DNA of 64,000 bases, taken from IMG/VR virus record IMGVR_UViG_3300025133_008097, positions 32,001-96,000 of that record; one strand, given 5' to 3'. The notes under the pieces were generated by a model that worked only from the letters and a program-made list of their open reading frames with translations, searched no databases and had not been told where the DNA came from. The DNA is from a virus. Numbering within the stretch: the first letter of the stretch is position 1; each line of letters begins with the position of its first letter. A program made the translations under genes and the position numbers. This document shows positions 34,742 to 54,454 of this stretch, piece by piece.

Positions 34742-35645
34742 TGTGTTGGGGACCGGCTACCGGACCAACAATGAATATCTTTTTAAATGCCCCTACTGCG
34801 AACATCACAAGCGCAAATTCTCTGTAAATCTAGATAAGGGCTACTATAAATGCTGGGTGTGCGACACCCGTGGCAAGAATATCTATCGTGTTGTTCGCCG
34901 TTTTGGCACGAACCACGACAAGTCGCAATGGCGAGATTTCACTTCTGAGATTGATTTTGATCAACTCGAAGATTTATTCGGCGAGAAAATAGAAGAAAAA
35001 CAGATACTTGAGATGCCCGAAGGGTTTATCTCTCTCGCAAACAGAGAGATGCCACCTACCGGCTTTGCTGCAATGAACTACCTACGCCATCGCGGCATCA
35101 CTAAGCAAGACATTGTTTGGTGGAAGATGGGATACTGCACCAAGGGAGAATACGAGGGCAGAATCATAATTCCATCGTTCGATGATGAAGGAGACTTGAG
35201 CTATTTTGTATCCCGATCTTATGATCGATCCTATTATCCTAAGTATAAGAACCCTCCGGCAAGCCGTAATATTATATTCAACGATTTGTTTGTGGATTGG
35301 AGTTCGGACATTATCCTGGTCGAAGGGATTTTTGATGCGATTAATGCAGGCCGTAATGCGGTCCCTATTCTTGGCTCTACATTAAATCAGAACTCTGTCC
35401 TGCTTCGTAAGATCGTTAAAGAGGACGCTGGAGTGTATGTTGCACTCGATCCCGACGCCACAAAGAAAGAGCTTGAGATTATAAAGACTTTGTTGGATTT
35501 TGATATTGAGGTTTGGAAGGTAAATATCGGCGACAACGAGGATGTTGGCTCGATGAAAAAGGAACAATTCCAGAAATGCTTGGAAAATGCGACCCTTATC
35601 ACTCCAGACAACTATTTATTGTTGACACTTGCCATGTCTGTCTAG
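34710..35645 (+). CDS. DNA primase (zinc-binding domain plus TOPRIM)
   Basis: CPYC...CWVC zinc motif, RIIIPSFD...RS...KYKNP, TOPRIM ILVEGIFD and ALDPDA. Start moved to the in-frame GTG at 34710; the track starts at 34641. Confidence 0.88.
   Translation: MKEKKLKILTNVLGTGYRTNNEYLFKCPYCEHHKRKFSVNLDKGYYKCWVCDTRGKNIYRVVRRFGTNHDKSQWRDFTSEIDFDQLEDLFGEKIEEKQILEMPEGFISLANREMPPTGFAAMNYLRHRGITKQDIVWWKMGYCTKGEYEGRIIIPSFDDEGDLSYFVSRSYDRSYYPKYKNPPASRNIIFNDLFVDWSSDIILVEGIFDAINAGRNAVPILGSTLNQNSVLLRKIVKEDAGVYVALDPDATKKELEIIKTLLDFDIEVWKVNIGDNEDVGSMKKEQFQKCLENATLITPDNYLLLTLAMSV
35611..35618 (+). promoter_or_regulatory. putative late promoter motif ACTATTTA
   Basis: Inside the primase 3' end, 34 nt upstream of the ATG at 35653 that opens the small-gene cluster. 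Confidence 0.5.
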
Positions 35646-35652
35646 GAGCCCA

Positions 35653-36018
35653 ATGAAACTAATAATGGAAAACTGGAAGAAGTTTTTGTCTGAGAGAGTA
35701 GAATTAGAAGATCTGCCCATCGGACCACAGCCTCTTCGGTTGCACAAAGAAGCCAATGCCCAGATTATTTTGGCTAAGGATAATCCGGGTCTTTTTGACC
35801 GGTCAAACGATCAATTTTGGTCCGAGGATCCCGGGAAGATCGAGTACTATAAAGAAAGGGGCCGGGACATCACCCAAGACGACATCGACCGCGGCTTCTT
35901 CCGCGGGTGGAATGACGAACTAACGGTTGTAAATCAGGATGGCGAGATAGTGGTGGGTAGCATCGAAAGCGAGTATGCTGACCTCGACCTCATCGTCGTA
36001 GCGCCGGCGCCCCAGTAA
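35653..36018 (+). CDS. small hypothetical protein with MKLIMENWKKFLSE leader
   Basis: AGGAG RBS at 35644-35648 supports ATG 35653 rather than 35629; amphipathic leader ending in LSE. Confidence 0.7.
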   Translation: MKLIMENWKKFLSERVELEDLPIGPQPLRLHKEANAQIILAKDNPGLFDRSNDQFWSEDPGKIEYYKERGRDITQDDIDRGFFRGWNDELTVVNQDGEIVVGSIESEYADLDLIVVAPAPQ

Positions 36019-36020
36019 AA

Positions 36021-36515
36021 ATGAAAATCTCAACTGCCCGCTTAAAGCAAATCATCCACGAGGAACTCTTTTATCGAGAGTTTCATCGCAAGACAGAACA
36101 ACTCACGGAAGTAGAGTCAGAAAAACAGCGCCGTTATATGTGCGCAATGAAGGATTCGGACGACCGCCCGGAAGGCCTCTCGAAAGCAGAAGCAGAAGAA
36201 ATGTGCACCGGACCAATGAAAGAAGCCAACCCGGCCCATCCGCGGGGATGGGAGCCACTCCCTCGTGGAGGCGACCCCGCGGCAAAGTTCCTTCAGAAGC
36301 TCAAGGCGGAAAAAGCAGCGATTGCGGCTGCAGCTGAGAGAAAAAAAAGAGGAGAAGCCTCGACACCAGCTAGCACCACCAATCTCAAGCGCTTTGATCG
36401 CGCCGCTCCTGAAGAAAAAGATCCGGAAAATGTTGGACTTGATACGCTGGAGATGACGGAAAAAGAGTATGAACAGTGGCGCGCCCGAGGATTCTTCGAT
36501 AAGGATAAGTTTTAA
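36021..36515 (+). CDS. small protein with conserved leader MKISTARLKQIIHEEL (putative capsid-internal protein)
   Basis: Leader shared with several other ORFs; highly charged body. Confidence 0.7.
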   Translation: MKISTARLKQIIHEELFYREFHRKTEQLTEVESEKQRRYMCAMKDSDDRPEGLSKAEAEEMCTGPMKEANPAHPRGWEPLPRGGDPAAKFLQKLKAEKAAIAAAAERKKRGEASTPASTTNLKRFDRAAPEEKDPENVGLDTLEMTEKEYEQWRARGFFDKDKF

Positions 36516-36529
36516 AAGGAACAAATAAA

Positions 36530-36877
36530 ATGAAAATCACCAAACAAAGACTAAAAGAGATTATCAAGGAAGAGCTTAATGAAGCCTCCAACCCGGAATG
36601 GGAGTCGGCCGACAAGATCCTCAGAGGTCTAGTATATCTGGCACAGGACCTAGAGGACAGCTCCAACGCTGACCCAGCAGGGCTTGCATTCGCAATCGTC
36701 GGAAAACTCCGCGAAGCCGTTGATGCTATGGAGCGACGCTTAAACGAGAAGTTTGCAGAGGTAGAAGACGAGGTTTCGGACGAAGAGGCTCTGGTACTCA
36801 AAGGGCCCCAGTTCGATCCACTTGGAGACTCTCTCCCTGCGCGCCGCCAGCGAGCATCAGTCCGGGGTCGGAAATAA
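36530..36877 (+). CDS. small protein with conserved leader MKITKQRLKEIIKEEL (putative capsid-internal protein)
   Basis: AAGGA RBS; first 16 aa identical to the 36877 ORF. Confidence 0.75.
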   Translation: MKITKQRLKEIIKEELNEASNPEWESADKILRGLVYLAQDLEDSSNADPAGLAFAIVGKLREAVDAMERRLNEKFAEVEDEVSDEEALVLKGPQFDPLGDSLPARRQRASVRGRK

Positions 36878-37347
36878 TGAAAATCACCAAGCAAAGACTT
36901 AAAGAGATCATCAAGGAAGAGCTTTCCACAGTTCGCGAGAGCGACTGGTATGATGACGAAAACGAGACCCGCGCCGACAGGAAGTATGCCGACCGCGACG
37001 CCGGATTGGGAGATCTCCAGTCGGACGAAAAGTTCACAGGCGGTTCCCCCGAAGAACGGCTGCTCACGCTTATGAGAGCAAGAGAGGTTCTTGCGGCAAT
37101 GAGTGAGGAAGATTTGGAAGAACTCAGTCTTAGCCTCGACGGCGAAACTACCAGATGGCTTCAACACCTCCTCGCCAACCCGATGTATGCCCCCATGGAG
37201 GAGAAGTTCGAACGAAGGCGCTACGGCCAGTCCGCGAAAAAACCAAAGCCGAAGACCCCACGTGACGAGAAAAATCTGTCACAGCGTGAAAAAGATGCGC
37301 TCAATAGCGCCACCGGCAAGAAGAACCAAGGCCGCGGAGGCTACTAA
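36877..37347 (+). CDS. small protein with conserved leader MKITKQRLKEIIKEEL and C-terminal TGKKNQGRGGY
   Basis: TAATG-coupled; acidic body and basic tail. Confidence 0.75.
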   Translation: MKITKQRLKEIIKEELSTVRESDWYDDENETRADRKYADRDAGLGDLQSDEKFTGGSPEERLLTLMRAREVLAAMSEEDLEELSLSLDGETTRWLQHLLANPMYAPMEEKFERRRYGQSAKKPKPKTPRDEKNLSQREKDALNSATGKKNQGRGGY

Positions 37348-37348
37348 A

Positions 37349-37627
37349 ATGAAGATTTCAAAAGCAAAGCTACGACAGATCATCAAGGAAGAGTTGGGAA
37401 CTCTGCGGGAGGAAGACCCAGCGGAGGAAACAGCGCTTAATAGTCCGCGGCAGGCTGGTAGGGAGTGGGCTATTAAGAATCTTCGCGTCGCCATCAACCG
37501 CGCTGCGGGAGCCGGACTGAGCAATGACGAAATCCGCAAGGTCATAGAGGATAAGATAGAGAGCGGCACCGAGCACGGACGCTTCACATCTACCGGACCT
37601 TGGGCTCCGGAATATAGGGATAAATAA
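37349..37627 (+). CDS. small protein with conserved leader MKISKAKLRQIIKEEL
   Basis: True start at ATG 37349, 1 nt after the upstream stop; the track's 37103 start overlaps the previous gene in another frame. Confidence 0.75.
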   Translation: MKISKAKLRQIIKEELGTLREEDPAEETALNSPRQAGREWAIKNLRVAINRAAGAGLSNDEIRKVIEDKIESGTEHGRFTSTGPWAPEYRDK

Positions 37628-37636
37628 AAATAACAC

Positions 37637-37664
37637 TTGACACCACCTCCCCATCCTGTATACT
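37637..37664 (+). promoter_or_regulatory. sigma70-type promoter TTGACA-16 nt-TATACT
   Basis: Consensus -35 (37637-37642) and near-consensus -10 (37659-37664) in the gap before the GTG at 37691; AGGGGA RBS follows. Confidence 0.75.
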
Positions 37665-37690
37665 AGTATCATAGACTAGGGGATAACTAC

Positions 37691-40600
37691 GTGTATAAAA
37701 TAGCACACCTTGCGGACACGCATATAAAGAATTTAAAATTTCATTACGAATACAAGAAGGTATTCGAACAACTTTACGAAACACTACGAAAAGAAAACGT
37801 AGATTACATCGTACACTGCGGCGACATCGCCCACACCAAGACACAGATTTCACCAGAGTTCGTTGAGCTTTGCTCCGACTTCTTCGCAAATCTAGCGAAA
37901 ATCGCGCCAACCTACATCATCTTGGGCAATCACGACGGCAACTTAAAGAATAGCACCCGTCAGGACGCCCTGTCGCCAATTGTGAAGGCTTTAAACCTAC
38001 CGGACCTACATCTGCTCAAGGAAGCCGGAGAAGTCCTTGTAGGGCCGCACATCGCCCTTAACGTGCTATCCGTCTTTGACGAGGATAATTGGGTGATGCC
38101 GACCGACCCGGAACGAATCAACATCGCACTTTATCACGGCTCTGTATCTGGCGTCAAAACCGACACCGGCTGGGTGATGACTCATGGCGATCACGACGTA
38201 GGAATTTTCGGTGGTCACGACTATGCTATGCTTGGCGACATTCACAAGACAAATCAAATCCTCGACACCGAAGGTCGCGTGAGGTATTGCGGCTCAACCG
38301 TCCAGCAGAATCACGGCGAGACAAATGACAAGGGATTTTTGATTTGGGAAATTGAAGACAAAGACAAGTTTCGCGTGAGTCACCATGTTTTGCTCAACCC
38401 CAAGCCATTCGTAACAATCGAACTCACGCCAAAGGGGCGTATGCCTAAGGGCACTAAGATCCCTCCCACGGCTCGACTTCGCCTCGTGAGCAATAATAAT
38501 CTACCGCTTGATGTTATGCGTAAAGCTGTAGAGGTCGCTAAGCATCGTTTTAAGCCCGAGAGTATTGCGTTTCTTAATCGTGCAGCCGGCGAACGCGGTA
38601 CAGTTGAGATCGGTACTGGCTTTAAGGTAGAAAATCTGCGAGACAAGGGCGTACAAGAGAATCTAATCCGTGAGTATCTCGTTGAATATCAGCCGAGCGA
38701 GAACATGCTTGAGAGAGTCTTCGAACTAAATCGGAAGTACAACTCACAGATTGAAGAGACAGAAGAAGTCGCACGAAACGTTAATTGGAATATTAACAAG
38801 TTTGAGTGGGATAATCTCTTTAACTATGGTGAAGACAATAGTGTAGACTTTACTAAGCTAAATGGTATTGTGGGGATTTTTGGCAAGAACTATTCCGGAA
38901 AGTCTAGTATTATTGACGGAATGCTTTATACGATGTTTAATACCACCTCCAAGAATGAGCGTAAAAACTACAACATCATCAACCAGAATAAAAAAGACTG
39001 CCGCGGCTGCGTGGAGTTACAAGTAGGTGATAAAGTATATACGATTGAGCGCAAGTCGGAGAAGTATGTTAAAAAGTTAAAAGGCGAAGTCACCAACGAG
39101 GCGAGGACCTTCTTAGATTTCTCGGGCCTCGATGCGGTAATGGGAGAAGAATCGAGTCTTAACGGTACCACCCGTACCGAAACAGATGCACATATTCGTA
39201 AGCGTTTTGGCACAGTAGAGGACTTCTTACTAACTTCGATGTCAAGTCAGCTCGATAGTTTATCTTTTATTAAGGAGGGATCCACGCGCCGCAAAGAAAT
39301 TCTTGCTAAGTTCTTGGATTTAGACATTTTTGAGAAAAAGTTTAAGTTGGCTCACGAGGACGGCTCGGACTTAAAAGCCGTTCTGCGACGCGTGGGAGAT
39401 ACAGATTATAGTAATGACATAGCATTAGCCGAGGTCCAGCACCTCGAAGCCAATCGCGCACTAGATAATGAAGTTGCGGCATGCGATCAACTCAGAGAGG
39501 GCCTGAGCGTGGCAGAGAAGGAATATGCAACACTCACAGTGCAGATCGATTCCATTCCCGCTGAGCGCTTGGATATTAAAAATCTCTTGGAAACTCGCTC
39601 TTCTCTGGAAAAGAAGGTTGAAGGGACTGATGTTAGCATTGTAGAACTTAAGTCGCAGAATCTTGACTATAACGAAAAGCTAAAAGACTACGACGACTTT
39701 TTGACAACTATCGATATCGAAGATCTTTTGGCTCAAAAGCAAGAGTTTGATGAGTTCAAGCAAAAATATGATGATACCCTTAATAAGGCGCGCCTCTTAG
39801 ATAATGATTATAAGTCTATGAGCAAAAAACTAGACTTGTTGGATGAAGTACCATGCGGGGATAAATATCCCACGTGCCAGTTTATCCGGGACGCTCACTT
39901 GGCCGCGGTTGAACTGCCCTCCTTGGAGGTTGAAATTGTTGACAAGATTGAAGAGGCCAAAGGATATAAAAATATGACAATCTCTGTGGACTCGTTTCAA
40001 ATGATTGAGCTTATTGAGCGTTATAATAATACCATTATTAAAAAGAACAATATTGAGATTGAGAAGCGCGATAACAAAGTCTCTATCGAGAAGCTATATG
40101 CGAAGATAAAAAGCTATCGAGACGCTCTTCGAACAACGAGTGAAAAGATTGAGTTATATGAAGAAAAGAAAGATTTAATTAAGAACATAGAAAGTCTTAT
40201 TAACTCTCGTGACACGGTGGAAAGAAAAATAAAAGAGATGAGAGGAGAGCTTCTCGATGTCGAAGACTCGATTAATCTACACCACCGACAGCTTGGATCT
40301 ATGGAACAAAAGGTTGAAGACCTTAAGGAAAAAAAGTTAGAGTTAGATGAAATACGGGAGGAATACGCAGCCTATGATTTGTTCATGCGCTGCACTCATT
40401 CTAATGGGATTGCTTACGATATTATCAAAAAGCGCCTACCAGTTATTAATGCTGAAATAGCGAAGGTATTGTCAAACATTGTTGACTTCGATGTCTTCTT
40501 CCAGGAAGACGGCCGCAAGCTCGACATCCTGCTCAAGCATCCAAAGCACGACCCGCGGCCGATTGAGATGGGCTCCGGCGCCGAGAAAACTGTTACCGCG

Positions 40601-40843
40601 ATGGCTATTCGCCTGGCTCTGCTCTCCGTGTCATCACTACCTAAGGGAAATATTTTTATTCTCGATGAGCCTGGAACTGCCCTAGATGCAGACAACATGG
40701 AGGGGTTCATTCGAATCCTTCAGCTTATTAAGATGTATTTTAAAACTGTCATTCTTGTCTCTCATTTAGATTCTCTTAAAGATATCGTAGATGTGGAAAT
40801 TACCATTGATAAGACAAATGGTTATGCCCGGGTCAGTCAGTGA
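37691..40843 (+). CDS. fused SbcD-SbcC (Mre11-Rad50; T4 gp47-gp46-like) nuclease-ATPase
   Basis: Metallophosphoesterase motifs ADTH, CGD, GNHD, YHG and GDIH are followed in the same ORF by Walker A GKNYSGKS, a coiled coil, signature MGSGAEK and Walker B ILDEP. Confidence 0.92.
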   Translation: MYKIAHLADTHIKNLKFHYEYKKVFEQLYETLRKENVDYIVHCGDIAHTKTQISPEFVELCSDFFANLAKIAPTYIILGNHDGNLKNSTRQDALSPIVKALNLPDLHLLKEAGEVLVGPHIALNVLSVFDEDNWVMPTDPERINIALYHGSVSGVKTDTGWVMTHGDHDVGIFGGHDYAMLGDIHKTNQILDTEGRVRYCGSTVQQNHGETNDKGFLIWEIEDKDKFRVSHHVLLNPKPFVTIELTPKGRMPKGTKIPPTARLRLVSNNNLPLDVMRKAVEVAKHRFKPESIAFLNRAAGERGTVEIGTGFKVENLRDKGVQENLIREYLVEYQPSENMLERVFELNRKYNSQIEETEEVARNVNWNINKFEWDNLFNYGEDNSVDFTKLNGIVGIFGKNYSGKSSIIDGMLYTMFNTTSKNERKNYNIINQNKKDCRGCVELQVGDKVYTIERKSEKYVKKLKGEVTNEARTFLDFSGLDAVMGEESSLNGTTRTETDAHIRKRFGTVEDFLLTSMSSQLDSLSFIKEGSTRRKEILAKFLDLDIFEKKFKLAHEDGSDLKAVLRRVGDTDYSNDIALAEVQHLEANRALDNEVAACDQLREGLSVAEKEYATLTVQIDSIPAERLDIKNLLETRSSLEKKVEGTDVSIVELKSQNLDYNEKLKDYDDFLTTIDIEDLLAQKQEFDEFKQKYDDTLNKARLLDNDYKSMSKKLDLLDEVPCGDKYPTCQFIRDAHLAAVELPSLEVEIVDKIEEAKGYKNMTISVDSFQMIELIERYNNTIIKKNNIEIEKRDNKVSIEKLYAKIKSYRDALRTTSEKIELYEEKKDLIKNIESLINSRDTVERKIKEMRGELLDVEDSINLHHRQLGSMEQKVEDLKEKKLELDEIREEYAAYDLFMRCTHSNGIAYDIIKKRLPVINAEIAKVLSNIVDFDVFFQEDGRKLDILLKHPKHDPRPIEMGSGAEKTVTAMAIRLALLSVSSLPKGNIFILDEPGTALDADNMEGFIRILQLIKMYFKTVILVSHLDSLKDIVDVEITIDKTNGYARVSQ

Positions 40844-41545
40844 CTACAATCCAGGATATTCGAATCCGTAAATCTGTAAGAAGTAAAATTTAAGAGCACG
40901 GTTTTTAGCGTCGTCATCGCCCACATACCAGTGCCAAGCAGTAAGGTTGGCAATGCCGGCAATTGCTGCCAAGGTTCTTTTGATGTCTTCTTCGATCCAT
41001 TCAATTTGCTCATCAGTGGGATCGTCGACAGACAAGTCTAGATCAATGGCTATGGAATATAATACGTACCAATTTTGATTGTCATACGCCTCTTTAGCTC
41101 GCATAAAGATTCGTTCTAGTCTAAGGATCTCCTTCTCAGAGAACCCGCTGGCCCGGACCTTATCTGGGTGCGTCTCGGCAGCTATGCGTCGAAACAACTT
41201 TTTAAGTTCCACCTCTTTTTTTATCTTGGGAACAGCCTCTTCGTCTTCGTCTTCTGGCTCGCTGTCCGTTGGCACAAGATCCGTACAGTCGGATTCGTTG
41301 CTTTCTTCTATAAGTTGTGGGGGCTCTTCTTCTGCTGGCTGCGGGGGCGCCTGAGGGGTGACGGCAACCTGTTCGGCTAATCTGGTTTGTTCTTCCTCCG
41401 GGAGTTCTCTCACTAGTCGCGAAACCTCCTCCTGGAATTCCAGGATGGCGTCCTTAGAGAGTTCTTGATGATACTCTAAATCAGCATGCACAAACTCTGC
41501 ATTTTTGAGGGTTTTTTTCAATTTGTACTTAAGTTGTTTAGACAT
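40844..41545 (-). CDS. J-domain (DnaJ-like) protein
   Basis: ELKKLFRRIAAETHPDK...FMRAKEAYD is the J-domain helix II-HPD-helix III pattern; AGGGGAG RBS on the minus strand; only minus-strand gene accepted. Confidence 0.8.
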   Translation of the reverse strand: MSKQLKYKLKKTLKNAEFVHADLEYHQELSKDAILEFQEEVSRLVRELPEEEQTRLAEQVAVTPQAPPQPAEEEPPQLIEESNESDCTDLVPTDSEPEDEDEEAVPKIKKEVELKKLFRRIAAETHPDKVRASGFSEKEILRLERIFMRAKEAYDNQNWYVLYSIAIDLDLSVDDPTDEQIEWIEEDIKRTLAAIAGIANLTAWHWYVGDDDAKNRALKFYFLQIYGFEYPGL

Positions 41546-41559
41546 ACTTCTCCCCTCTG

Positions 41560-41569
41560 TCTAATTAGT
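41560..41569. promoter_or_regulatory. palindromic bidirectional late-promoter-like motif (CTAATTAG)
   Basis: Centre of a 39-bp divergent gap; reads TCTAATTA on plus and ACTAATTA on minus, 17 and 16 nt from the two start codons. Confidence 0.55.
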
Positions 41570-41584
41570 GTAAAGGAGTAGAGC

Positions 41585-41770
41585 ATGAGACACATTATAG
41601 ATAAGGGACTAGAGAAACTAGTTTCCCGAAAGTTGTTAGCGTGGACAACGGCCACGAGCTTGTTGTTGTTTTCTGATCTGACATCCAGCGATTGGGTAAT
41701 CATTACTACAGTTTATATTGGAGGCCAGACCATCATCGATGCAGTTGCGAAGCTTAAAGGTTATAAATAA
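41585..41770 (+). CDS. small two-TM membrane protein, holin-like
   Basis: 61 aa with two hydrophobic segments and a basic C-terminus; AAGGAG RBS. Confidence 0.5.
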   Translation: MRHIIDKGLEKLVSRKLLAWTTATSLLLFSDLTSSDWVIITTVYIGGQTIIDAVAKLKGYK

Positions 41771-44848: not shown

Positions 44849-44849
44849 A

Positions 44850-45233: not shown

Positions 45234-45480
45234 CAATACAGAATTAGAGAAGATCATCAAAGAAGAAATTAACGAGGGCTTGAGGACTTCAATGAGGCGC
45301 GCCCGTTCTGCGCAAGAAATAGCCGATGCTCTGAAACAACTTGAAAAAATAATGATTCACCTTCTTGACCAAAAGAGGCGTTCCGATCCTGGAACCCCCG
45401 AACACGATGGCGCCAAAGAGCAGATGGCCCGCATTGCGGAACTGGCTCAAGAATATGCATATAGGAACGAGATGCAATGA
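45223..45480 (+). CDS. small protein with leader (M)RISNTELEKIIKEEINE
   Basis: In-frame GTG at 45223 preceded by GGAGG at 45211-45215; variant of the conserved leader. Confidence 0.7.
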   Translation: MRISNTELEKIIKEEINEGLRTSMRRARSAQEIADALKQLEKIMIHLLDQKRRSDPGTPEHDGAKEQMARIAELAQEYAYRNEMQ

Positions 45481-45752
45481 GAATTTCTAAATCCCGTTTG
45501 CGCGAGATCATTTTGGAGGAGCTGGAGGAAACCCCAACTCCAGAGCTCATCGAATCAGAGATTCTGTCGGAGAACATGTTAGCTACGTTAGCCCCCAAGA
45601 TAATGGAGTTTATCATTAAGAATCCAAAAATGCTGCAGCTGCTTTCTAATGCAATGCTGCCAGCAATTATGAAGGCTATGGGTGGCGACGAGAAGACAGG
45701 CGGGGCATCTGATATGCAGTCGATGATGGCTAGCTTAACACAAGAGGAGTAG
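45477..45752 (+). CDS. small protein with leader MRISKSRLREIILEELEE
   Basis: ATGA-coupled; conserved leader. Confidence 0.75.
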   Translation: MRISKSRLREIILEELEETPTPELIESEILSENMLATLAPKIMEFIIKNPKMLQLLSNAMLPAIMKAMGGDEKTGGASDMQSMMASLTQEE

Positions 45753-45756
45753 AACA

Positions 45757-46275: not shown

Positions 46276-46283
46276 GGGGTGCC

Positions 46284-47870
46284 ATGGCTAATGCCCTTAC
46301 AAAAGAGGAGATATTAAAAGAAGTTGTAAAATCGGGCAAAAACCCAGTACATTTTACGACCAACTATTGTCGCATCTCTCACCCTCAAAGGGGCCTCATT
46401 CCGTTTAAGGCTTTTGACTATCAGCAGCAGCTCCTTACAGATTATAATGATTATCGCTTTAACGTCATCCTTAAAGCACGCCAATTAGGAATCTCTACCA
46501 TCACAGCTGCCTATGTTGGGTGGCTGATGCTTTTTCACCGTGACAAGAACATCTTAGTTGTGGCCACGAAGCTTCAAACTGCGACAAACTTGGTGCGCAA
46601 AGTTAAAGCCATTATTAAGAACTTACCAGATTGGCTGCAAATCTCTCCGATTATGGTAGATAATCGAACTTCTTTCGAACTAAACAATGGATCTCAAATT
46701 AAGGCAGCCTCCACCTCCGGGGATGTGGGTCGCTCAGAAGCACTCTCTTTGTTGGTTATAGACGAGGCCGCCCATGTTGAAAAACTAGGAGAATTGTGGA
46801 CCGCTCTCTACCCTACCCTGTCCACGGGCGGTCGTTGTATCGCCCTCTCTACTCCCAATGGCGTTGGCAACTGGTTTCATCAAACTTGTGTTGAAGCTGA
46901 GAGCGGCACCAATGATTTCTTTATGACCACTTTAATGTGGGACGTACACCCTGATCGTGATAAGACCTGGTTTGAAAAAGAGACCATGAATATGTCGCGA
47001 CGCCAGATAGCTCAGGAGCTTGAGTGCAATTTCAATGTGTCGGGCGAAACGGTGATACACCCAGATGATCTCCATTGGTATATGGAGCGCGCCACGGCAC
47101 CCGAATATCGGACAGGGTTTGATCGCAACTATTGGATTTGGAAACGATTCGACCCAGAAAAGCCGCACCTCATCGTCGCCGATGTCGCTCGGGGTGATGG
47201 GAAGGATAATAGCGCATTTCATATTTTTGAACTGGAGTCGATGGAAATAGTGGCCGAATATATTGGGAAGCCCACCCCTGATGATTTTGCCGACATTCTT
47301 TATAATGTGGGCGGTGAGTATGGGAATCCGATGTTAGTAATAGAAAACAACAATATTGGATATGCAGTACTTAAAAAGTTATTAGATAAAGGGTATCCTA
47401 ATCTATACCATTCTAGTAAGGGAGATCACCAATACGTCGATCCAATAACAGCTCAATGGCACTCAAGCGCCATTCCGGGCTTTACAACTTCCTCGAAAAC
47501 GCGACCCCTCATCGTTGCCAAGATGGAAGAGTTTATGAGAAACAAACTAATTAAGATTAATTCGAATCGTCTTTTGTCGGAAATGAAAACTTTTATTTGG
47601 CACAATGGGCGGCCAGAAGCAATGAGGAGTTATAACGACGATCTAGTTATGTCATTTGCAATCGGTTGTTGGGTGAGAGATACAGTAATTGTGGAGAGTC
47701 AGAGAAGTGTTGAATATAGCAAACAGTTTTTGTCTTCGATATCTACATCGGACACACAGATTTCTACAACCATTCCCGGTATGAAGGGGCATAAAACAAT
47801 AAAAGAAAAGGATAGGGCTGCTCACGCGAATATATTCAATGAGCAATATATAGCCCTTATTAAAGGATAA
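46284..47870 (+). CDS. terL: terminase large subunit (T4 gp17-like)
   Basis: Walker A KARQLGIST, Walker B LLVIDEAA, coupling motif ALSTPNG, nuclease DVARGDGKDNS and DDLVMSFAI. Confidence 0.97.
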   Translation: MANALTKEEILKEVVKSGKNPVHFTTNYCRISHPQRGLIPFKAFDYQQQLLTDYNDYRFNVILKARQLGISTITAAYVGWLMLFHRDKNILVVATKLQTATNLVRKVKAIIKNLPDWLQISPIMVDNRTSFELNNGSQIKAASTSGDVGRSEALSLLVIDEAAHVEKLGELWTALYPTLSTGGRCIALSTPNGVGNWFHQTCVEAESGTNDFFMTTLMWDVHPDRDKTWFEKETMNMSRRQIAQELECNFNVSGETVIHPDDLHWYMERATAPEYRTGFDRNYWIWKRFDPEKPHLIVADVARGDGKDNSAFHIFELESMEIVAEYIGKPTPDDFADILYNVGGEYGNPMLVIENNNIGYAVLKKLLDKGYPNLYHSSKGDHQYVDPITAQWHSSAIPGFTTSSKTRPLIVAKMEEFMRNKLIKINSNRLLSEMKTFIWHNGRPEAMRSYNDDLVMSFAIGCWVRDTVIVESQRSVEYSKQFLSSISTSDTQISTTIPGMKGHKTIKEKDRAAHANIFNEQYIALIKG

Positions 47871-47873
47871 CCC

Positions 47874-49835
47874 ATGGCAGGCAAAAACGGAAGTAACCCG
47901 AGAAATCCAGATTCTCCATTATTTAAGAGATTAACTAGATTATTCTCGGGCCCCATTGTAAACTATCGAGCTCAAATCGCTCGACAAGAACGCCGTAATG
48001 ATTTAGATAAGTATCGATATCGTTTCCGTTCACTGAGCGGTCAAGAGTTCAAGCGCGCCACAGACAATCTTTCCAAGAATTATAATCTCTTGTCATCGCA
48101 TGCGATGCGCAACCAGAACCGCGGGGAGAGATACCAAGACTTTGATCAGATGGAGTATATGCCAGAGATCGCTTCAGCAATGGATATCTATGCCGACGAG
48201 ATGACGACGTCTAATGAGTTTGACCAGCTTCTTACAATAGACTGTCTTAATCTTGAAATTAAGACCATTTTAGAAACTCTTTTTTATGATGCATTAAACA
48301 TCGAGTTTAATGCTTTTGGTTGGGCCCGCTCAATGGTTAAGTTTGGAGATTTCTTTTTATATTTGGATGTCGACGAGCAGATCGGCGTCAAATCAGTTAT
48401 CGGATTACCCAGTTCTGAATTAGAGAGACTAGAAGGACAGGACCCGACAAATCCAAATTATGTACAGTTCCAGTGGAACGGCGCTGGTATGACCTTTGAA
48501 GATTGGCAGGTCGCTCATTTTCGTATTTTAGGTAATGATAAGTATAGTCCTTATGGGACATCAGTCCTGGACTCCGCCCGCCGCATCTGGCGCCAGCTTG
48601 TGTTAATTGAGGATGCCATGATAGCATACCGCGTAGTGCGTGCCCCCGAACGTCGGGTCTTTAAGATTGACGTAGGAAATATTCCACCGCAGGATGTCCC
48701 CCAATACATGGAGAAGGTGAAGACCGAGATGAAGCGTAACCAAATGGTGAACGCTTCTACTGGTCGCGTAGATTTGCGTTACAATCCTCTATCTCTAGAA
48801 GAGGACTATTTCATTCCGATGCGGGGCGGGGTGGGCTCCGATATTACTTCGCTACCTGGCGCCAAATCTTTGGATGATATTGAGGATGTTAAGTATTTGA
48901 GAGACAAGCTGTTCGCAGCCCTTAAGGTGCCGCAGTCTTACCTCACCAACCTAGACGGAGACAACGAAGACAAAACTACGTTAGCTCAAAAGGACATTCG
49001 GTTTGCCCGAACCATCCAGCGCCTTCAGAGAGCCCTGATTTCTGAACTAGAAAAAATCGCAGTTGTTCATCTTTATACTATTGGCTTCCGGGGCGAGGAC
49101 CTGGTGAGTTTTAAATTAGCTCTCAACAATCCCTCCCGGCTTGCGGAATTACAGCAACTGGAGTATATGCGTACCAAGTTTGATATTGCAAACTCGGTTC
49201 CCGAAGGGGTCTATAGCAAGCGTTGGCTTTCCAAAAACATTTTGGGAATGTCGGACGAAGAATTCTTGCGCAATCAACGAGAGTCCTTTTATGATAAGAA
49301 ATATCAGCAAGCTCTCGAAGGAGTACAAGAACAAGCGGCCGCAGACGAGATGGGCGGGGGTCTAGGCGGCGATCTTGGAGGCGACCTCGGAGGAGACCTC
49401 GGAGGAGATCTCGGTGGCGAAGACCTTGGAGGCGCCGCAGGAGGCGAAGAAGGGGGCGCCGAAGGAGGTGAAGACTCTGCACTTCTGACAGCTCCTGCTC
49501 GCCGCGAGGATCGACCTGGCCCGGCCCAAGATAGAATCTCGCGCCGACCAGACGGCCGTCGCGCTGGCGGCCCTTCGCGTCGCCATCTTCGAAGTCTTGT
49601 GGCCCCCGAAGTTCCCACTGGTCGAGCAGAGAAACGACGCGTCGGCCATTCCATTGGTCGCGTTGGTGTACCCGATCTTCGAGCCTTAGTTAGTCTACAA
49701 GAGAATGATGCATCTATTTATACTAAGGACGAGGCAGTATTAATGGAAAGTACCACCAACATCCAGCGACTTATAGCTCAACTGGAGAGCAAAGAGAAAG
49801 AGGCGGAACAGGATGAAACACAACAAGAAACGTAA
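47874..49835 (+). CDS. portal protein (T4 gp20-like)
   Basis: EDAMIAYRVVRAPERRVFKIDVGNIP...YNPLSLEEDYFIP.RGG...DVKYLRDKLFAALKVP matches the gp20 core; follows TerL. Confidence 0.96.
   Translation: MAGKNGSNPRNPDSPLFKRLTRLFSGPIVNYRAQIARQERRNDLDKYRYRFRSLSGQEFKRATDNLSKNYNLLSSHAMRNQNRGERYQDFDQMEYMPEIASAMDIYADEMTTSNEFDQLLTIDCLNLEIKTILETLFYDALNIEFNAFGWARSMVKFGDFFLYLDVDEQIGVKSVIGLPSSELERLEGQDPTNPNYVQFQWNGAGMTFEDWQVAHFRILGNDKYSPYGTSVLDSARRIWRQLVLIEDAMIAYRVVRAPERRVFKIDVGNIPPQDVPQYMEKVKTEMKRNQMVNASTGRVDLRYNPLSLEEDYFIPMRGGVGSDITSLPGAKSLDDIEDVKYLRDKLFAALKVPQSYLTNLDGDNEDKTTLAQKDIRFARTIQRLQRALISELEKIAVVHLYTIGFRGEDLVSFKLALNNPSRLAELQQLEYMRTKFDIANSVPEGVYSKRWLSKNILGMSDEEFLRNQRESFYDKKYQQALEGVQEQAAADEMGGGLGGDLGGDLGGDLGGDLGGEDLGGAAGGEEGGAEGGEDSALLTAPARREDRPGPAQDRISRRPDGRRAGGPSRRHLRSLVAPEVPTGRAEKRRVGHSIGRVGVPDLRALVSLQENDASIYTKDEAVLMESTTNIQRLIAQLESKEKEAEQDETQQET
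49353..49433 (+). repeat. GGDL tetrapeptide tandem repeat in portal C-terminal extension
   Basis: Encodes GGGL-(GGDL)x4-GGEDL-GG with synonymous variation between units. Confidence 0.9.
49713..49720 (+). promoter_or_regulatory. putative late promoter motif TCTATTTA
   Basis: Inside the portal 3' end, 92 nt upstream of the ATG at 49813. Confidence 0.35.
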
Positions 49836-50625
49836 TACTGCATTTATTTATGAAGCTCTTGTTAAAGAGTTTACAAAGGCGGTGCTAGAGACCAATCTTC
49901 CCCGTAAAGATATAGCCATGGCAATTCTTAAGGAACATTTTTCGAAGGGCACTCTTTTGGCTGAAGAACTGCAGTTGTACCAGACTTTACTCGAAACTAA
50001 AAATGTGAAGAGTGATTTGGCGGAGCGTCTTCTTAGTGAGACCCGGGCCGCACGAAAGGCTCTCAACGAGGCAACCCTTTTTGATGCTCAGTCTAAAGTG
50101 ATTGCTGCAATTAATAAAAATCTAGGCTCTGAAGTTTGGGCAAATTTTGTTCCCAACTTTAAAACCTTGGCGTCTATTAGTTCGATTTTTAATACCAAAG
50201 CTACCGTTAAACAGAAGGTATTGTTTGAACAAGCACTTATAGATCGTATGACGCGCCGCCATGAACCCCACACAGAAGATCTGAAATCGATAGATAATTT
50301 GACTTATCGATCCTTTATTAAAAAATTTAATAATAAATATAGTGGACTTTTAGAGGAACAAAAAGATTTTCTTAATAGATATATTACCTCATTCGCGGAT
50401 GAGGGGTTTGAGCTGCGTGTCTATCTCAACGAGGAAATTGCAAGACTTAAAAGTCTAATTAGTAAAACGGTTGAGGATAGCACTGCTGATACGCTCATTC
50501 GCGAAAAGTCACAAAGTGTGGTGACGTATTTAGAAAATATTAGAAAGCGCGAGTTTGTGCCGGATGATATTACTAAGCTGCTGAAGACTCAGGCCTTGGC
50601 AAAGGAACTGGTAAACAATGATTAA
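49813..50625 (+). CDS. hypothetical head-module protein (helical)
   Basis: 270-aa ORF overlapping the portal end, with GAGGCGG RBS; basic N-terminus MKHNKKRNT. Confidence 0.75.
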   Translation: MKHNKKRNTAFIYEALVKEFTKAVLETNLPRKDIAMAILKEHFSKGTLLAEELQLYQTLLETKNVKSDLAERLLSETRAARKALNEATLFDAQSKVIAAINKNLGSEVWANFVPNFKTLASISSIFNTKATVKQKVLFEQALIDRMTRRHEPHTEDLKSIDNLTYRSFIKKFNNKYSGLLEEQKDFLNRYITSFADEGFELRVYLNEEIARLKSLISKTVEDSTADTLIREKSQSVVTYLENIRKREFVPDDITKLLKTQALAKELVNND

Positions 50626-51124
50626 GATCAAGGTCGGCGGCCCCCAAGCAACAGTTGAACTCAACGCGCGAAAGGCGCTGGATGGGTCGCTGCTGGTTAT
50701 GGATCATAAAAAGATTGATATCGCCGTTATACCAGAAAAGATGAAAGTAGTCACCTTCCCTAAGACCACGGCTACGGAAGATGTGTATGATTACCAAAAT
50801 CGCCTACTGGAATTGTTGGCCGACAAAGGAATTATCGATCGCGGAAGCATTCAGGGGGGGAATGTATTTCGATCCCTTGAGGGGGCTGTATTTCCTAATG
50901 AAGAGGTTAACTCATTGCAGGCCGCAGTTTATGTGATTGCGGAATTCATCAATTATGAAGCCAGTATCGAGAAGGTAGCAGATCAGTACGAGCAAGAACT
51001 CGAAGATATGTACACCCATCCGTCCGACCGAGATTCGACGGAGTACGGCGAAGTCCCGCAATATGCGGAGAAAGGGTCTATGCGTCCTGGGTATTATTAC
51101 TATCCGTTACGCTACCGATATTAA
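50618..51124 (+). CDS. hypothetical head-module protein
   Basis: 168-aa ORF overlapping the upstream stop; Tyr-rich C-terminus. Confidence 0.7.
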   Translation: MIKIKVGGPQATVELNARKALDGSLLVMDHKKIDIAVIPEKMKVVTFPKTTATEDVYDYQNRLLELLADKGIIDRGSIQGGNVFRSLEGAVFPNEEVNSLQAAVYVIAEFINYEASIEKVADQYEQELEDMYTHPSDRDSTEYGEVPQYAEKGSMRPGYYYYPLRYRY

Positions 51125-51445
51125 ATGGAATTAATACATTTTATACTTGCCGCTTACGGCATGACATTCATCCTTATACACGGACATATCTTTAATAAGA
51201 TCCGGCCACCTTGCAAATCGATGTGGGGCTTCGGCCGTTTGTTCCATTGTCATTTGTGTATGGGATTCTGGGTTGGAGTGTTTCTTTGGGGCGTAAGTCC
51301 ATATACAGAACTATTTAGTTTTAGCAATCAGCCCATGACAGCATTCATGTGCGGTTGCATTAGTGCTGGAACATCATACTTCTTAAGTATGTTGGTCGAG
51401 GACTACGGGATCCGAGTGGTCCATAAAGGAGGTGAGCAATCATGA
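51125..51445 (+). CDS. small membrane protein, DUF1360-like
   Basis: Three hydrophobic segments with LFHCHLCMGFWVG, matching the L..CxxC.G.W pattern of DUF1360. Confidence 0.55.
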   Translation: MELIHFILAAYGMTFILIHGHIFNKIRPPCKSMWGFGRLFHCHLCMGFWVGVFLWGVSPYTELFSFSNQPMTAFMCGCISAGTSYFLSMLVEDYGIRVVHKGGEQS

Positions 51446-51492
51446 AAAAATGGATGATCCAACCAGTTCGACGTTGCTGCTCCGGCAGTTGA
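51442..51492 (+). CDS. 16-aa peptide MKKWMIQPVRRCCSGS (not in ORF track)
   Basis: TAAAGGAGGTGA (51424-51435), a near-full anti-SD complement, lies 6 nt before the ATG; ATGA overlap with the upstream stop. Confidence 0.6.
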   Translation: MKKWMIQPVRRCCSGS

Positions 51493-51513
51493 CTACTTTA
51501 AAGGAATAATATA

Positions 51514-52266
51514 ATGGCACGCAGAAAAAATGTAAAACGAATAGACCCAAGATACTTCTTGCACGAGACAGTTAATCGTGAGGAAGAACCCTTAGAGGAG
51601 TTTTTGGGCTTCTCGAAGAAAGAGAAGCTCGCGAAGAAGGTTAAGAAAATCCTTGCGATGATCGACAAGGCCGGGGGAAAGTACAACAACCGGCCAGTCC
51701 ACGACTTCATCAAAGAACCTTTTGCTATAGCTATAGCCAAGGGCGCCAATCCGCGCACCGCAAAGATGAGCTACCCGGAGGCTCTGGATGCCTTCGACCT
51801 TGAGCAAGAAGAACTTCAAGCTTTGAAACAAGTTTATGTGGACGAAGTGGGGGCAGCGAAAGAGCGAGAGGCAGCGCGCGCCAAGGACAAGCGTATGTCT
51901 GCCCAAAGAGACCAGCGAAATATCGATGCAATCAGTCAGCGAGACAAGGACGCCCGGGCCACAGCACAAGGCGCCGAAGACCTTAAAGATGTCTTCAGAA
52001 GTTTTGACAGGGCTCGCGGTTCACTCAAAAAGAATATGAAATCGGGTCAGCCCGGTCTTGCCAAAGAGCTTTTAAGAAATGCAGAGATGGTTCAGAAGTA
52101 CGCTCAGGGTCGCGACAAGCAGGAGCTTGCCAAGGTAATGCAGGCTCTGGAGAAGTTTGCCGGCGAGGCTGGGATTGAACAACGCCACCGCGATCGTCCG
52201 AGCACTTCTAGAACGGGCGGCTATGGTTCCTCAGCCACCGACAAGTATCGGTGGCATAAGGAATAA
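51514..52266 (+). CDS. hypothetical charged helical protein (possible capsid-internal protein)
   Basis: AAGGA RBS; leader MARRKNVKRIDPRYFLHE followed by PLEE; K/E/A-rich. Confidence 0.7.
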   Translation: MARRKNVKRIDPRYFLHETVNREEEPLEEFLGFSKKEKLAKKVKKILAMIDKAGGKYNNRPVHDFIKEPFAIAIAKGANPRTAKMSYPEALDAFDLEQEELQALKQVYVDEVGAAKEREAARAKDKRMSAQRDQRNIDAISQRDKDARATAQGAEDLKDVFRSFDRARGSLKKNMKSGQPGLAKELLRNAEMVQKYAQGRDKQELAKVMQALEKFAGEAGIEQRHRDRPSTSRTGGYGSSATDKYRWHKE

Positions 52267-52269
52267 ACA

Positions 52270-52875
52270 GTGGCACAACTCCTACGAGAATACTATGAAC
52301 TATGCGAAGGCGGTATCTGTCAGGATCTGCTGACGGAAGCCGAAAAGCGTTTCGTCAAAGAAGGCGGAATGATGCTCACCGGCAAACTTCAGGAGTGTGA
52401 TGTTCAGAACGGTAACGGTCGAGTATACCCGGCGCCGATTCTCACTCGGGAAGTGAAGAAGTATGCGGGGATAGTGCAAGACAATCGGGCCCTAGGAGAA
52501 CTAGATCATCCTGAGTCTTCTATTATTAACCTCACCAACGTTTCTCACATGATGACGGAAGTTTGGATGGACGGCCCGAGCGTGATGGGGAAGGCTAAAG
52601 TTCTCAATACACCATCAGGTCAGATACTCCGTTCTCTGGTGGAGTCAGGCGTTAAGATCGGAATCTCTTCTCGTGGTATGGGCTCGGTTACTGAACAGCA
52701 GGGCAAAACGATGGTAGAGGATGACTTTCAATTGATCTGTTTTGATATTGTATCAGAACCGTCGACGCCCAACGCCTTTATGGGACTTTCTGAAAGTAAG
52801 TTAATGAATGAAAATGTGGCGCGCAACAACCGGATCGTAGCGCTACTCAACGATATTATTGGAGAAGGGTCATGA
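52270..52875 (+). CDS. prohead core protease (T4 gp21-like)
   Basis: GTG start; QNGNGRVY, ALGELDHP (His), KIGISSRGMGS (Ser) and FDIVSEPSTPNA motifs of the gp21 family. Confidence 0.95.
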   Translation: MAQLLREYYELCEGGICQDLLTEAEKRFVKEGGMMLTGKLQECDVQNGNGRVYPAPILTREVKKYAGIVQDNRALGELDHPESSIINLTNVSHMMTEVWMDGPSVMGKAKVLNTPSGQILRSLVESGVKIGISSRGMGSVTEQQGKTMVEDDFQLICFDIVSEPSTPNAFMGLSESKLMNENVARNNRIVALLNDIIGEGS

Positions 52876-54023
52876 TGACTGAAGAAGAGATTGCAGTTTT
52901 TGAGGGGAAGATAGCGAATTGGTTTTCGGGAGCTTTTAGTCAAGGCCGCCGCAAAGGATCACCCCCGGCAATGCCTAAGGCTTCCGGCGGAGCACCCTCT
53001 CCCACGACACCAGATCCCGATCCGGGCCCCGGCCCGGGCACTGATCCAGGTCCAGACCCCGACCCCGGGCCAGAGCCCGGGCCAGAGCCCGGGACCACCG
53101 AATTAAGTAAAGATGCTCCTCTTTCTATAACTAAGCGCCAGCCGCAACTTCGCGTGGGCCCCGGTAATAACCCCCAACAACAAGCTGCCGGCGGACAAAA
53201 AGAGGCGCCCCTGGTGATGCAGCTGCAAAAGCTTGGCCTATCACAGCCCGTCGCCCAGCAGCTTGCTAAGACAATAGCGCAGTACTTTAAGCGGCGCACT
53301 GATATATCAGTTCCTGTCGCTGAAGAAATTGCGGCTTTGATGATGCCGGTGCTGGTGGAGCAGTTAGTTAAGGGTCTCATGAATGAGGCGCGCCCCGAAT
53401 ATCGAAAGCGATTTGACAGCTCTTTAAGAGGAATCAAAGCCGCTAAAGCAAGACTTACGAAGGCGGAGAAAGAACATGAGGCCTCAGCAGACAAACGCTT
53501 TACTCGTGATGAACTTCGTGCCGCTAAAGCTAATTTTGAAACGGCCGCGGCAGGATATGAGGCTATTGAGAAAGATTTAGAGGGACTTAAGCACTCCGAA
53601 AAAGGCGCCAAAGCTGCAAAAGCTTTGGACAAGCAGCGTCAAGGCGCACGCATTCGTGGGATGGGTGGCAAGGATACTGGCCATGCGGGTTCATCTCGGG
53701 CTAAAGGTATCATCGACAAAATTCTCACCCGTTTCGTTGCGGACAACCAGCAGCTTCTGGCGAAGGATGAAAAACTACAGGCCATTTTCTCGGGTGACGA
53801 CGATGGTCGCGCACTCAATGCGTTGCGCAAATCTATCATTAATTTGCTTCGACGTCAAATGAAGCGCCGCGGCTACGATGCCGCTGAGATTAAAAAGTTA
53901 GTAAACGAATCTGTTTTAATGGTGGGCAGGTTTATACTAGAAGAGATGACAACTAACGAAAAAATCCGAATGCTGGAAGAGAATCGACTAAATCGATGGA
54001 AAGTATTATCAGGCATTAAATGA
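52872..54023 (+). CDS. hypothetical protein with Pro-rich (PD/PG/PE) linker
   Basis: ATGA-coupled to the protease; PDPDPGPGPGTDPGPDPDPGPEPGPEPG tract; ends LEENRLNRWKVLSGIK. Confidence 0.7.
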   Translation: MMTEEEIAVFEGKIANWFSGAFSQGRRKGSPPAMPKASGGAPSPTTPDPDPGPGPGTDPGPDPDPGPEPGPEPGTTELSKDAPLSITKRQPQLRVGPGNNPQQQAAGGQKEAPLVMQLQKLGLSQPVAQQLAKTIAQYFKRRTDISVPVAEEIAALMMPVLVEQLVKGLMNEARPEYRKRFDSSLRGIKAAKARLTKAEKEHEASADKRFTRDELRAAKANFETAAAGYEAIEKDLEGLKHSEKGAKAAKALDKQRQGARIRGMGGKDTGHAGSSRAKGIIDKILTRFVADNQQLLAKDEKLQAIFSGDDDGRALNALRKSIINLLRRQMKRRGYDAAEIKKLVNESVLMVGRFILEEMTTNEKIRMLEENRLNRWKVLSGIK

Positions 54024-54454
54024 AAAAATCAGACCTAAAAAGAATCCTCAAGCCTCTTATTCGAGAGTGTGTAAAAGAGGTGATTTTGGATGAGGGAGTT
54101 CTTGCCGGAGTAATTTCAGAGGTGGCCGTGGGCCTAACTGCCACCCACTCAACTGCCCCACCCATTGTGGAACAGGCAGACCCGGTCCGGGAGCGACTGC
54201 AGCAGAATGCTTTTTCCAACAAACAGAATAGCACATTAAAACAGCAAAAACAGCAGTTAATGCAAGCGGTGGGAAGGCAAGCCTATAACGGCGTCGATCT
54301 CTTTGAGGGGACCACCCCGGCTCCTGCGCAGGGAAGTGTGACTCAGCCCGGAGGGGACCCTTCGCATGCGGGGGTAGATATTAGCAGCTTGTTTGGGTCA
54401 GTCGGAAAAAATTGGAATGCTCACATGGACAATGTGAAGGAAGATACACAATAG
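54020..54454 (+). CDS. hypothetical protein with leader-like N-terminus MKKSDLKRILKPLIRECVKEVILDE
   Basis: ATGA-coupled; amphipathic N-terminal helix related to the conserved leader. Confidence 0.7.
   Translation: MKKSDLKRILKPLIRECVKEVILDEGVLAGVISEVAVGLTATHSTAPPIVEQADPVRERLQQNAFSNKQNSTLKQQKQQLMQAVGRQAYNGVDLFEGTTPAPAQGSVTQPGGDPSHAGVDISSLFGSVGKNWNAHMDNVKEDTQ

Follow-up and report, generated by a model that had tools for sequence, protein, structure and literature searches.

Why should a set of small phage proteins that are otherwise dissimilar begin with the same few residues? The question is raised by a stretch of 64,000 nucleotides of viral DNA, bases 32001-96000 of the 116,840-bp IMG/VR viral contig IMGVR_UViG_3300025133_008097 (CheckV completeness 52%), which is referred to here as the window. 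An earlier reading of its letters, the original prediction, had pointed to six open reading frames (ORFs) with a common N-terminal leader and had proposed that the leader works like the capsid-targeting sequence (CTS) of phage T4, that is, as an address tag that brings proteins into the head and is cut off there. By Pfam, the window encodes a large terminase and a portal, both of T4 type, as well as a prohead protease of the Peptidase_S77 family. The analysis reported here suggests that the system is most likely a much-expanded version of the T4 head signal that is first used for loading and then clipped. Three kinds of tag were found, and the window encodes six proteins with the type-1 tag, one with type 2 and one with type 3.

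When the window, and also the whole contig, is translated in all six frames, the type-1 motif, [MV][KR]I[ST]xxxL[KRE]xIIxEE[LI], has exactly six matches, as had been claimed. All six lie at start codons on the + strand and none is internal. A profile built from 164 unrelated instances gives these six scores of 40.2 to 11.6 bits, and the next match in the contig reaches 5.3. The genes are the following.

36021 to 36515, + strand: type-1 leader protein of 164 residues; 22.7 bits; cargo in a 24-member single-linkage cluster
36530 to 36877, + strand: type-1 leader protein of 115 residues; 40.2 bits; cargo a singleton
36877 to 37347, + strand: type-1 leader protein of 156 residues; 38.9 bits; cargo in a 4-member cluster
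37349 to 37627, + strand: type-1 leader protein of 92 residues; 36.7 bits
45223 to 45480, + strand: type-1 leader protein of 85 residues; 11.6 bits; GTG start with GGAGG about 8 nt upstream
45477 to 45752, + strand: type-1 leader protein of 91 residues; 29.8 bits; in the variable slot between g44787 and g45757

Behind the leader the six proteins show no significant pairwise similarity, and no Pfam or PHROG family matches these parts. It had also been stated that the leaders end in an I/L-x-E site which is usually followed by another. The first half of this stands for all six proteins, in which an I-x-E ends at residue 14; one of the listed second sites (LNE, VRE, LRE, INE, LEE) is present in five, and the 36021 protein lacks it, its next site being only LTE at residues 28-30. 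The description of the type-1 leader as an amphipathic helix had to be dropped, its hydrophobic moment being no better than that of shuffled sequences. AlphaFold2, run without an alignment, models the leader of the 36530 protein as a separate helix (residues 5-18) at low confidence (pLDDT 62.6). The tags are rich in K, R and E and have no hydrophobic stretch, and they do not qualify as Sec or Tat signal peptides; among the cargos, a TM-like (transmembrane) segment is present in only 2 of 152.

How far does this leader reach beyond one contig? A back-translated leader pattern was scanned over IMG/VR, where fewer than one chance match is expected, and it found at least 120 loci with 171 ORFs, nearly all of the matches lying at ORF starts. 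Positions that the pattern left free are conserved too (K5, Q/R7, K/R9, K/R13 and L/I16). The tag extends for about 22 residues and comes in two subtypes, KSQLKQIIKEEL and KRQLRRIIKEEKARL; information is at background after residue 22-23, and G, D and P are over-represented in the stretch that follows. In more than 98% of cases the tag starts at Met1, at a median of 7 codons past the preceding stop, with a Shine-Dalgarno-like block at -13 to -8. The 236 cargos of this collection fall into 193 BLAST clusters, of which 176 are singletons. A profile hidden Markov model (HMM) of the leader, which had been proposed as a check, was searched against 1.84 billion representative proteins, and at least 11,737 metagenomic clusters carry the type-1 leader at E <= 0.001. 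None of the representative-protein matches listed has a functional name, and the ESM Atlas matches are only unnamed Uroviricota clusters. The family PF19753 (DUF6240), hit by two database matches, is not the leader; the score was marginal and the hit lay in an acidic region of the body. No description of the tags was found in Pfam, in PHROGs or in the searchable literature (by motif, or by CTS together with metagenomes or marine T4-like phages).

In a scan of one genome per prokaryotic species (185,579 species) no isolate genome held a profile-supported copy of the tag. The supported copies all came from contigs of metagenome-assembled genomes (MAGs) with inconsistent taxonomic labels; leader genes reach 16 within 8 kb, and one 306-kb contig has at least 26 of them. 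Many leader genes together with an S77 gene were seen on the large phage contigs L152/L167/L176 (NHDW01000006.1), L156/L165 (PBIO01000025.1), L141/L148/L168 (PBLX01) and P0019, and the MAG labels of these contigs read Methylococcaceae TMED69, Halobacteriovorax SP2999, Legionellales SP228 and Euryarchaeota. Such contigs are probably mis-binned jumbo-phage DNA, and on this sequence record the type-1 tag is virus-only.

In a few cases several tags stand in one reading frame. ORFs with 2-5 in-frame leader-cargo cassettes are rare (4 of 247 in the collected loci, and 180 high-scoring database representatives); they include L110, L082, L107, L027, P0001, P0002, P0004, P0011, P0019 and P0121. Their internal leaders mostly retain Met or Val. 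That they are artefacts of gene calling was considered and rejected, because stop-to-stop ORFs show them to be real. They may be polyproteins jointed by protease sites or recent losses of stop codons.

Is the type-1 leader the only tag of this kind? In an unbiased screen, 6,363 ORFs were checked for N-termini that are common to unrelated bodies. Type 1 was recovered with 461 ORFs on 334 unrelated body clusters, which upholds the idea of a modular and strictly N-terminal tag. Two more tags emerged, type 2 with 53 members on 32 body clusters, and type 3, MKxLxENWRxxLxE, with 27 members on 25 unrelated bodies, plus variants. The remaining 50-odd common N-termini are explained by ordinary orthology, each group having 1-2 body clusters. 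The window has one gene of each new type.

35653 to 36018, + strand: type-3 leader protein of 121 residues; the 14-residue tag MKLIMENWKKFLSE, then an unrelated body
51514 to 52266, + strand: type-2 leader protein of 250 residues; the tag MARRKNVKRIDPRYFLHETVNR, then an unrelated body

The 35653 protein had been taken for a variant of the type-1 leader. It belongs to the separate 14-residue type-3 family, in which every member has the L-x-E at this place and conservation ends exactly at E14 of L12-x-E14; the earlier hunch thus seems right in spirit, though the tag is a different one. The 51514 protein, which begins MARRKNVKRIDPRYFLxE, carries a third tag that had been missed altogether. Its matches are short, near-identical and N-terminal only. 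The type-2 consensus is MARRKN[VTK]KRIDPRYF[LM]xE[TK][VT]xR, found in 77 ORFs of 59 loci with a likeness confined to the first ~22-26 residues, and 73 type-2 cargos form 42 clusters. In 92% of type-2 proteins residue 18 is the last of an [LM]xE, and more sites follow at residues 23-31. Type-2 genes keep close to the S77 gene, 42 of 51 being on its strand and no more than 2.5 kb upstream of it. The cargo domain of the type-1 protein 37349 recurs, with 63% identity, in the C-terminal part of a type-2-tagged protein of another phage (L284), and this suggests that tags are interchangeable between cargos.

What could remove such tags? In the T4 literature gp21 is described as cleaving behind L/I-x-E; in the 10-residue CTS of internal protein IPIII residues 4 and 7 serve targeting and residues 8 and 10 serve processing. 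A gp21-like protease had been noted in the window and this was borne out.

52270 to 52875, + strand: prohead protease, Peptidase_S77, T4 gp21 family (PF03420, E 1.7e-30; phrog_207)

The protein aligns to the T4 gp21 structure PDB 5JBL (E 1.6e-15), with a His in GELDHP and a Ser in GISSRG at positions aligned with that structure. It should be noted here that the first leader pattern itself demanded IIxEE, which makes any count of candidate cleavage sites circular. A rescan that specified residues 1-9 only gave 155 distinct instances, and in these I11 is conserved in 85%, I12 in 92%, E14 in 96% and E15 in 84%; 149 of these instances have an [LIVM]xE whose Glu is residue 14. The gp21-type motif at a fixed position of the tag, part of the original prediction, is thus found by a search that did not ask for it. 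A second [LIVM]xE ending at residue 21 or 22 is present in about 50% of type-1 proteins, as compared to 1.8% per position in the cargo. The major capsid protein of the clade has an invariant LL[RK]E and then an indel-prone linker immediately ahead of its conserved mature core, which looks as the propeptide boundary of a gp23-type protein should.

The tag and the protease also go together in genomes. The S77 gene is encoded in 32 of 49 leader-bearing records of at least 37 kb; it is present in all ten that are at least 79% complete (145-290 kb), and the records that lack it are all at most 68% complete. In the reverse test 80 relatives were chosen by their protease; 29 of these loci were 15 kb or longer, and 25 of the 29 had leader ORFs. 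All 71 of these leader ORFs lie on the strand of the protease gene, 30 of them in the two slots that flank it. On this comparative evidence the tag is confined to phages with an S77 protease.

Taken together, the comparative evidence makes the capsid-targeting, protease-clipped reading appear well supported. We consider it somewhat probable that the tags are capsid-targeting propeptides clipped by the S77 protease, which would resemble the T4 CTS in function without being homologous to it and would form a far larger system. Tagged proteins would be produced late in infection alongside the structural proteins. The tag, in one of three forms (type 1, MKITKxQLKxIIKEE[LI] plus xxx[LIVM]xE; type 2, MARRKNxKRIDPRYF[LM]xE; type 3, MKL[LI]xE[NS]W[RK]x[YF]LxE), would bind a conserved component of the assembling prohead core, and the attached protein would be built into the prohead. 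The S77 protease would then cut after the Glu of [LIM]-x-E, that is after E14 in types 1 and 3 and after E18 in type 2, often also at a second site further on, and the mature cargo would be set free inside the head. Being a short self-contained module, the tag could also be the point at which new cargos are gained by recombination, and this would explain the variable islands of tagged genes, the cargo domains that switch tags and the rare leader-cargo-leader-cargo fusions. What the sequences show is the tags themselves, their modularity, the register of their [LIM]-x-E, their limitation to S77 phages and their place within and near the head module; core binding, cleavage, presence in the virion and any delivery to the host are inferred.

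A late-type motif had been noted ahead of the first leader cluster.

35611 to 35618, + strand: promoter-like motif ACTATTTA, 41 nt ahead of the first gene of leader cluster 1

Across the 120 loci CTATTTA is the top enriched 7-mer upstream of leader ORFs (23 copies as compared to 3.8 expected), and 21 of the 23 copies lie 26-59 nt before the ATG. It is strongly strand-biased, with + to - counts of 14:0 in the genome of the window and 30:4 in the complete genome G001. In the genome of the window it is found upstream of the head gene g49813, a sheath-like gene and the gene for a 2087-residue structural protein; more generally (A)CTATTTA precedes sheath-like, tube-like, head and giant structural genes as well as leader clusters. 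This distribution fits a late promoter. The part of the earlier claim that concerns the motif stands, the motif being a candidate late promoter.

A number of points weigh against the capsid-targeting reading. Four of the six type-1 genes lie between the primase gene and the Mre11/Rad50 gene, and cluster 1 starts 7 nt after the primase gene; with this short gap and these replication-gene surroundings, early co-transcription of cluster 1 is possible. The protease specificity assumed here is taken over from T4 gp21. The co-occurrence of tag and S77 could be due simply to descent within a single large clade. An S77 protease without the tag is found in T4 and in Microcystis phage Mel-JY01; the leader profile had no match in either genome, and the leader HMM and profile had none among the T4 internal proteins. 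A tblastn search with the 22-residue consensus against 50,697 cultivated phage records gave nothing, at a sensitivity limited by the short query. An N-terminal segment rich in E and K can hold [LIVM]xE by composition alone, and its occurrence in all three tag families by chance is only modestly improbable, at a few percent. The cargos are small and mostly acidic (median pI 5.1), unlike the internal proteins of T4, which are basic.

Among the other explanations the one that survives best accepts that the tags load the prohead and are cut, and holds that the cargos serve as dispensable filling of the core or scaffold, or remain as structural parts, and are no host effectors. Its evidence comes from the cargos themselves, many of which are small, acidic and predicted to be helical or disordered like scaffold proteins, and from the head module, in which tagged genes occupy slots by the protease where T4 keeps its core genes gp67/68/22 and a conserved protein has a leader-like N-terminus. 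The relevant genes of this module are given here.

49813 to 50625, + strand: g49813, conserved head-module protein of 270 residues, [LI]xE-rich; candidate scaffold or core protein
52872 to 54023, + strand: untagged gene of 383 residues in the variable slot between S77 and g54020
54020 to 54454, + strand: g54020, conserved head-module protein with leader-like N-terminus; candidate prohead core protein and protease substrate

The g49813 protein has 12 [LI]xE sites as compared to 4.6 expected and is kept in 31 loci, with CTATTTA 99 nt upstream in the window. The g54020 protein has 5 sites as compared to 0.9 expected, and orthologs are found in 16 of the first 120 loci plus G001. It had been listed as a carrier of the leader. 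This did not hold, as its family has 55 members and a single body cluster in the N-terminus screen, and its likeness to the type-1 leader is weak (hhalign probability 52% over 10 columns); it is a single-family member of the head module and not a carrier of a modular tag, and it may be a core protein. A strongly conserved C-terminal motif, AYNGVDLFEGT...DPGVDISSL, was seen in this family. The gene at 52872-54023 was considered as a gp22-like scaffold and rejected, since its slot is empty in 12 of 61 relatives (in 18 it holds a type-1 leader gene) and its [LI]xE count is at expectation; it is probably not the scaffold. Homologs of it were found in L272 and L338 only, and its product has an N-terminal low-complexity region rich in Pro, Gly and Asp.

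Fillers would hardly be expected to show the turnover that is seen, with 176 of 193 cargo clusters being singletons, at least 11,737 clusters in the databases and slots that can be empty. Some cargos have recognisable domains that are not of the scaffold kind (PGDYG, zinc ribbons), and the pattern is more like that of accessory arms-race genes than of structural fillers. We regard the filler explanation as rather unlikely, and worth keeping in mind. That the cargos are effectors injected into the host is itself a tentative view, somewhat doubtful as it stands.

Another possibility is that the tag has nothing to do with capsid loading and is a retained interaction or oligomerisation segment, or a handle for a chaperone, for degradation or for regulation. 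Type 1 is predicted to be helical, cluster 1 lies among replication genes, and cleavage is a prediction from sequence. Yet an oligomerisation helix need not begin at Met1, as over 98% of these tags do. The three tags are structurally unlike, type 2 containing Asp-Pro and type 1 not being significantly amphipathic, and all that they share is their position and [LIM]-x-E. A handle of this kind would also not account for the tight two-way linkage to the protease and its flanking slots, and we consider it improbable.

A conserved leader with hypervariable bodies is also the pattern of ribosomally synthesised and post-translationally modified peptides (RiPPs), and two radical-SAM enzymes are encoded in the genome of the window, so the tag could in principle be a recognition leader for a modifying enzyme such as a radical-SAM/SPASM protein. 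This reading was rejected as very improbable for want of a linked maturase: PF04055 is found in 4 of 49 leader-bearing records and in 2 of the 10 near-complete genomes, as compared to 10 of 10 for S77, and the radical-SAM genes of the window's genome are more than 40 kb from all leader genes. The bodies are 25-360 residues long, and those with at least four Cys are few (4 of 152). Least plausible of all, indeed scarcely credible, is an element that acts at the level of nucleic acid as a translation-initiation enhancer or recombination cassette, the peptide being incidental: the first codons are A-rich and the 36530 and 36877 leaders share a cassette identical at 45 of 48 nt, but other leader pairs of the window are only 52-71% identical in DNA, and across 170 instances synonymous codons vary freely (Leu8 in all six, Glu15 with GAA 85 and GAG 85 times), therefore selection acts on the peptide.

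The neighbourhood gives the setting in which the tags occur. The two head genes a short way downstream of the second leader cluster are the following.

46284 to 49835, + strand: T4-type large terminase (PF03237) and portal (PF07230, E 4.7e-78)

The closest cultivated phages, as judged by the portal, reach only 36-43% identity, and the contig therefore represents an uncultivated lineage with a T4-like head. The major capsid gene, of gp23 type, lies just past the end of the window. Gene-order maps give a conserved backbone of primase, Mre11/Rad50, g42180, g44787, g45757, terminase, portal, g49813, g50618, g51125, S77, g54020 and S21, and leader genes are inserted at nearly all of its junctions. 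The two leader clusters of the window fill the junctions between primase and Mre11/Rad50 and between g44787 and g45757; the latter slot, just upstream of the terminase, has leader genes in many relatives. Mel-JY01 has the same head-module gene order as the window.

Several other observations were made along the way. The portal (47874-49835, + strand) has a C-terminal extension of about 180 residues past the Pfam portal domain, which matches residues 85-469, and the extension holds a Gly/Asp-rich (GGDL)n-type repeat and an Arg/Pro-rich stretch. A 73-residue ORF at 54459-54680 (+ strand) resembles ribosomal protein bS21; its position is kept in the clade (8 loci), and in Mel-JY01 the corresponding place, after the protease, is taken by a gene annotated as RpsU/S21. 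Directly after leader cluster 1 there is a near-consensus sigma-70-type promoter, TTGACA-16-TATACT (37637-37664, + strand), and downstream of it, at 37691-40843 (+ strand), a single fusion of 1050 residues joins a Mre11-like phosphoesterase to a Rad50-like SMC ATPase. The sole sizeable minus-strand gene of the region (40844-41545) encodes 233 residues that are DnaJ-like by eye; it has only a weak PHROG match and its location differs among relatives. Two giant ORFs (1016-7279 and 11049-22700, + strand; 2087 and 3883 residues) lie on either side of a baseplate-wedge-like gene, and the larger has a counterpart of 3543 residues in G001 with a CTATTTA motif ahead of it.

What would it mean if the capsid-targeting reading were correct? 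The T4 CTS is the classic portable signal for loading a capsid, and an anti-restriction protein is among its cargos. To our knowledge only a handful of proteins, all from T-even coliphages, are known to carry it, and what it binds in the prohead core has yet to be defined. If the present tags work in the same way, T4-type phages from the environment would be using a clipped address tag widely and intensively to load their capsids, each genome having tens of cargos. The candidates for early effectors delivered by the virion, which could be found by a simple sequence rule, would number more than 10,000 proteins of unassigned function. Three near-invariant tags amid diverged head proteins would offer a handle on the prohead receptor, by covariation or co-folding, and could be used for engineered cargo loading beyond the T4 model. 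In its widest form the proposal is that an uncultivated marine T4-type lineage, with genomes of ~150 to >300 kb, packs a fast-evolving set of more than 10,000 protein families by a few interchangeable tags, which a conserved prohead component would read and S77 would clip, so that the proteins enter the host along with the DNA, in some cases as polyproteins jointed by protease sites. The tags would then be an index, searchable by sequence, of effectors that marine phages deliver for host takeover and against host defence. We put this forward as a possibility that is more doubtful than not.

It remains to place the tags among known systems. Like RiPP precursors, the tagged proteins have a conserved N-terminal leader, a hypervariable remainder and many paralogs per genome; unlike them they have no linked maturase, and their bodies are whole proteins and not short cores rich in Cys, Ser or Thr. 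The cargo-loading peptides of encapsulins show that a short terminal peptide is sufficient to load diverse cargo into a shell of the HK97 fold. Such a peptide typically lies at the C-terminus and contacts the shell protein itself; no protease clips it off, and its setting is a cellular nanocompartment and not a virion. Closer to the present case are the propeptides of inner-body and ejection proteins in the giant phages phiKZ, 201phi2-1 and SPN3US, which are cut after Glu by a protease of the gp21-like family at multiple sites with a three-residue motif. In the SPN3US paralogs gp53 and gp54 the first 15 residues are identical while the bodies have diverged, and a targeting role was proposed by the authors of that work. 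In contrast to the tags described here, giant-phage propeptides are mostly longer than 100 residues, have the motif A/S/G-x-E and share an N-terminus only among paralogs; they lack the portability of type 1, which stands on hundreds of unrelated bodies.

The closest likeness is to the CTS of T4, found on IPI, IPII, IPIII and Alt and removed by gp21. Reviews of T4 describe the T-even internal proteins as a diverse set in which the CTS alone is conserved. In both systems a short N-terminal peptide stands on otherwise unrelated, polymorphic small proteins, an L/I-x-E motif lies at the end of the tag or within it, an S77 protease is encoded by the same phage, and tagged genes are scattered in variable regions beyond the strict head module. 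The sequences themselves differ: IPII and IPIII of T4 start with MKTYQEFIAE, to which the present tags have no detectable homology, and they are therefore analogues or at most very distant relatives, outside the T-even CTS sequence family. The T4 CTS has 10 residues, whereas the tags described here have 14-22 and come in three distinct kinds within one genome. The cargos are mostly acidic, and rare ORFs string several cassettes together in frame. The scale is different too: T4 has 3-4 tagged genes, and here up to at least 26 are found per genome, with at least 11,737 cargo clusters in all.

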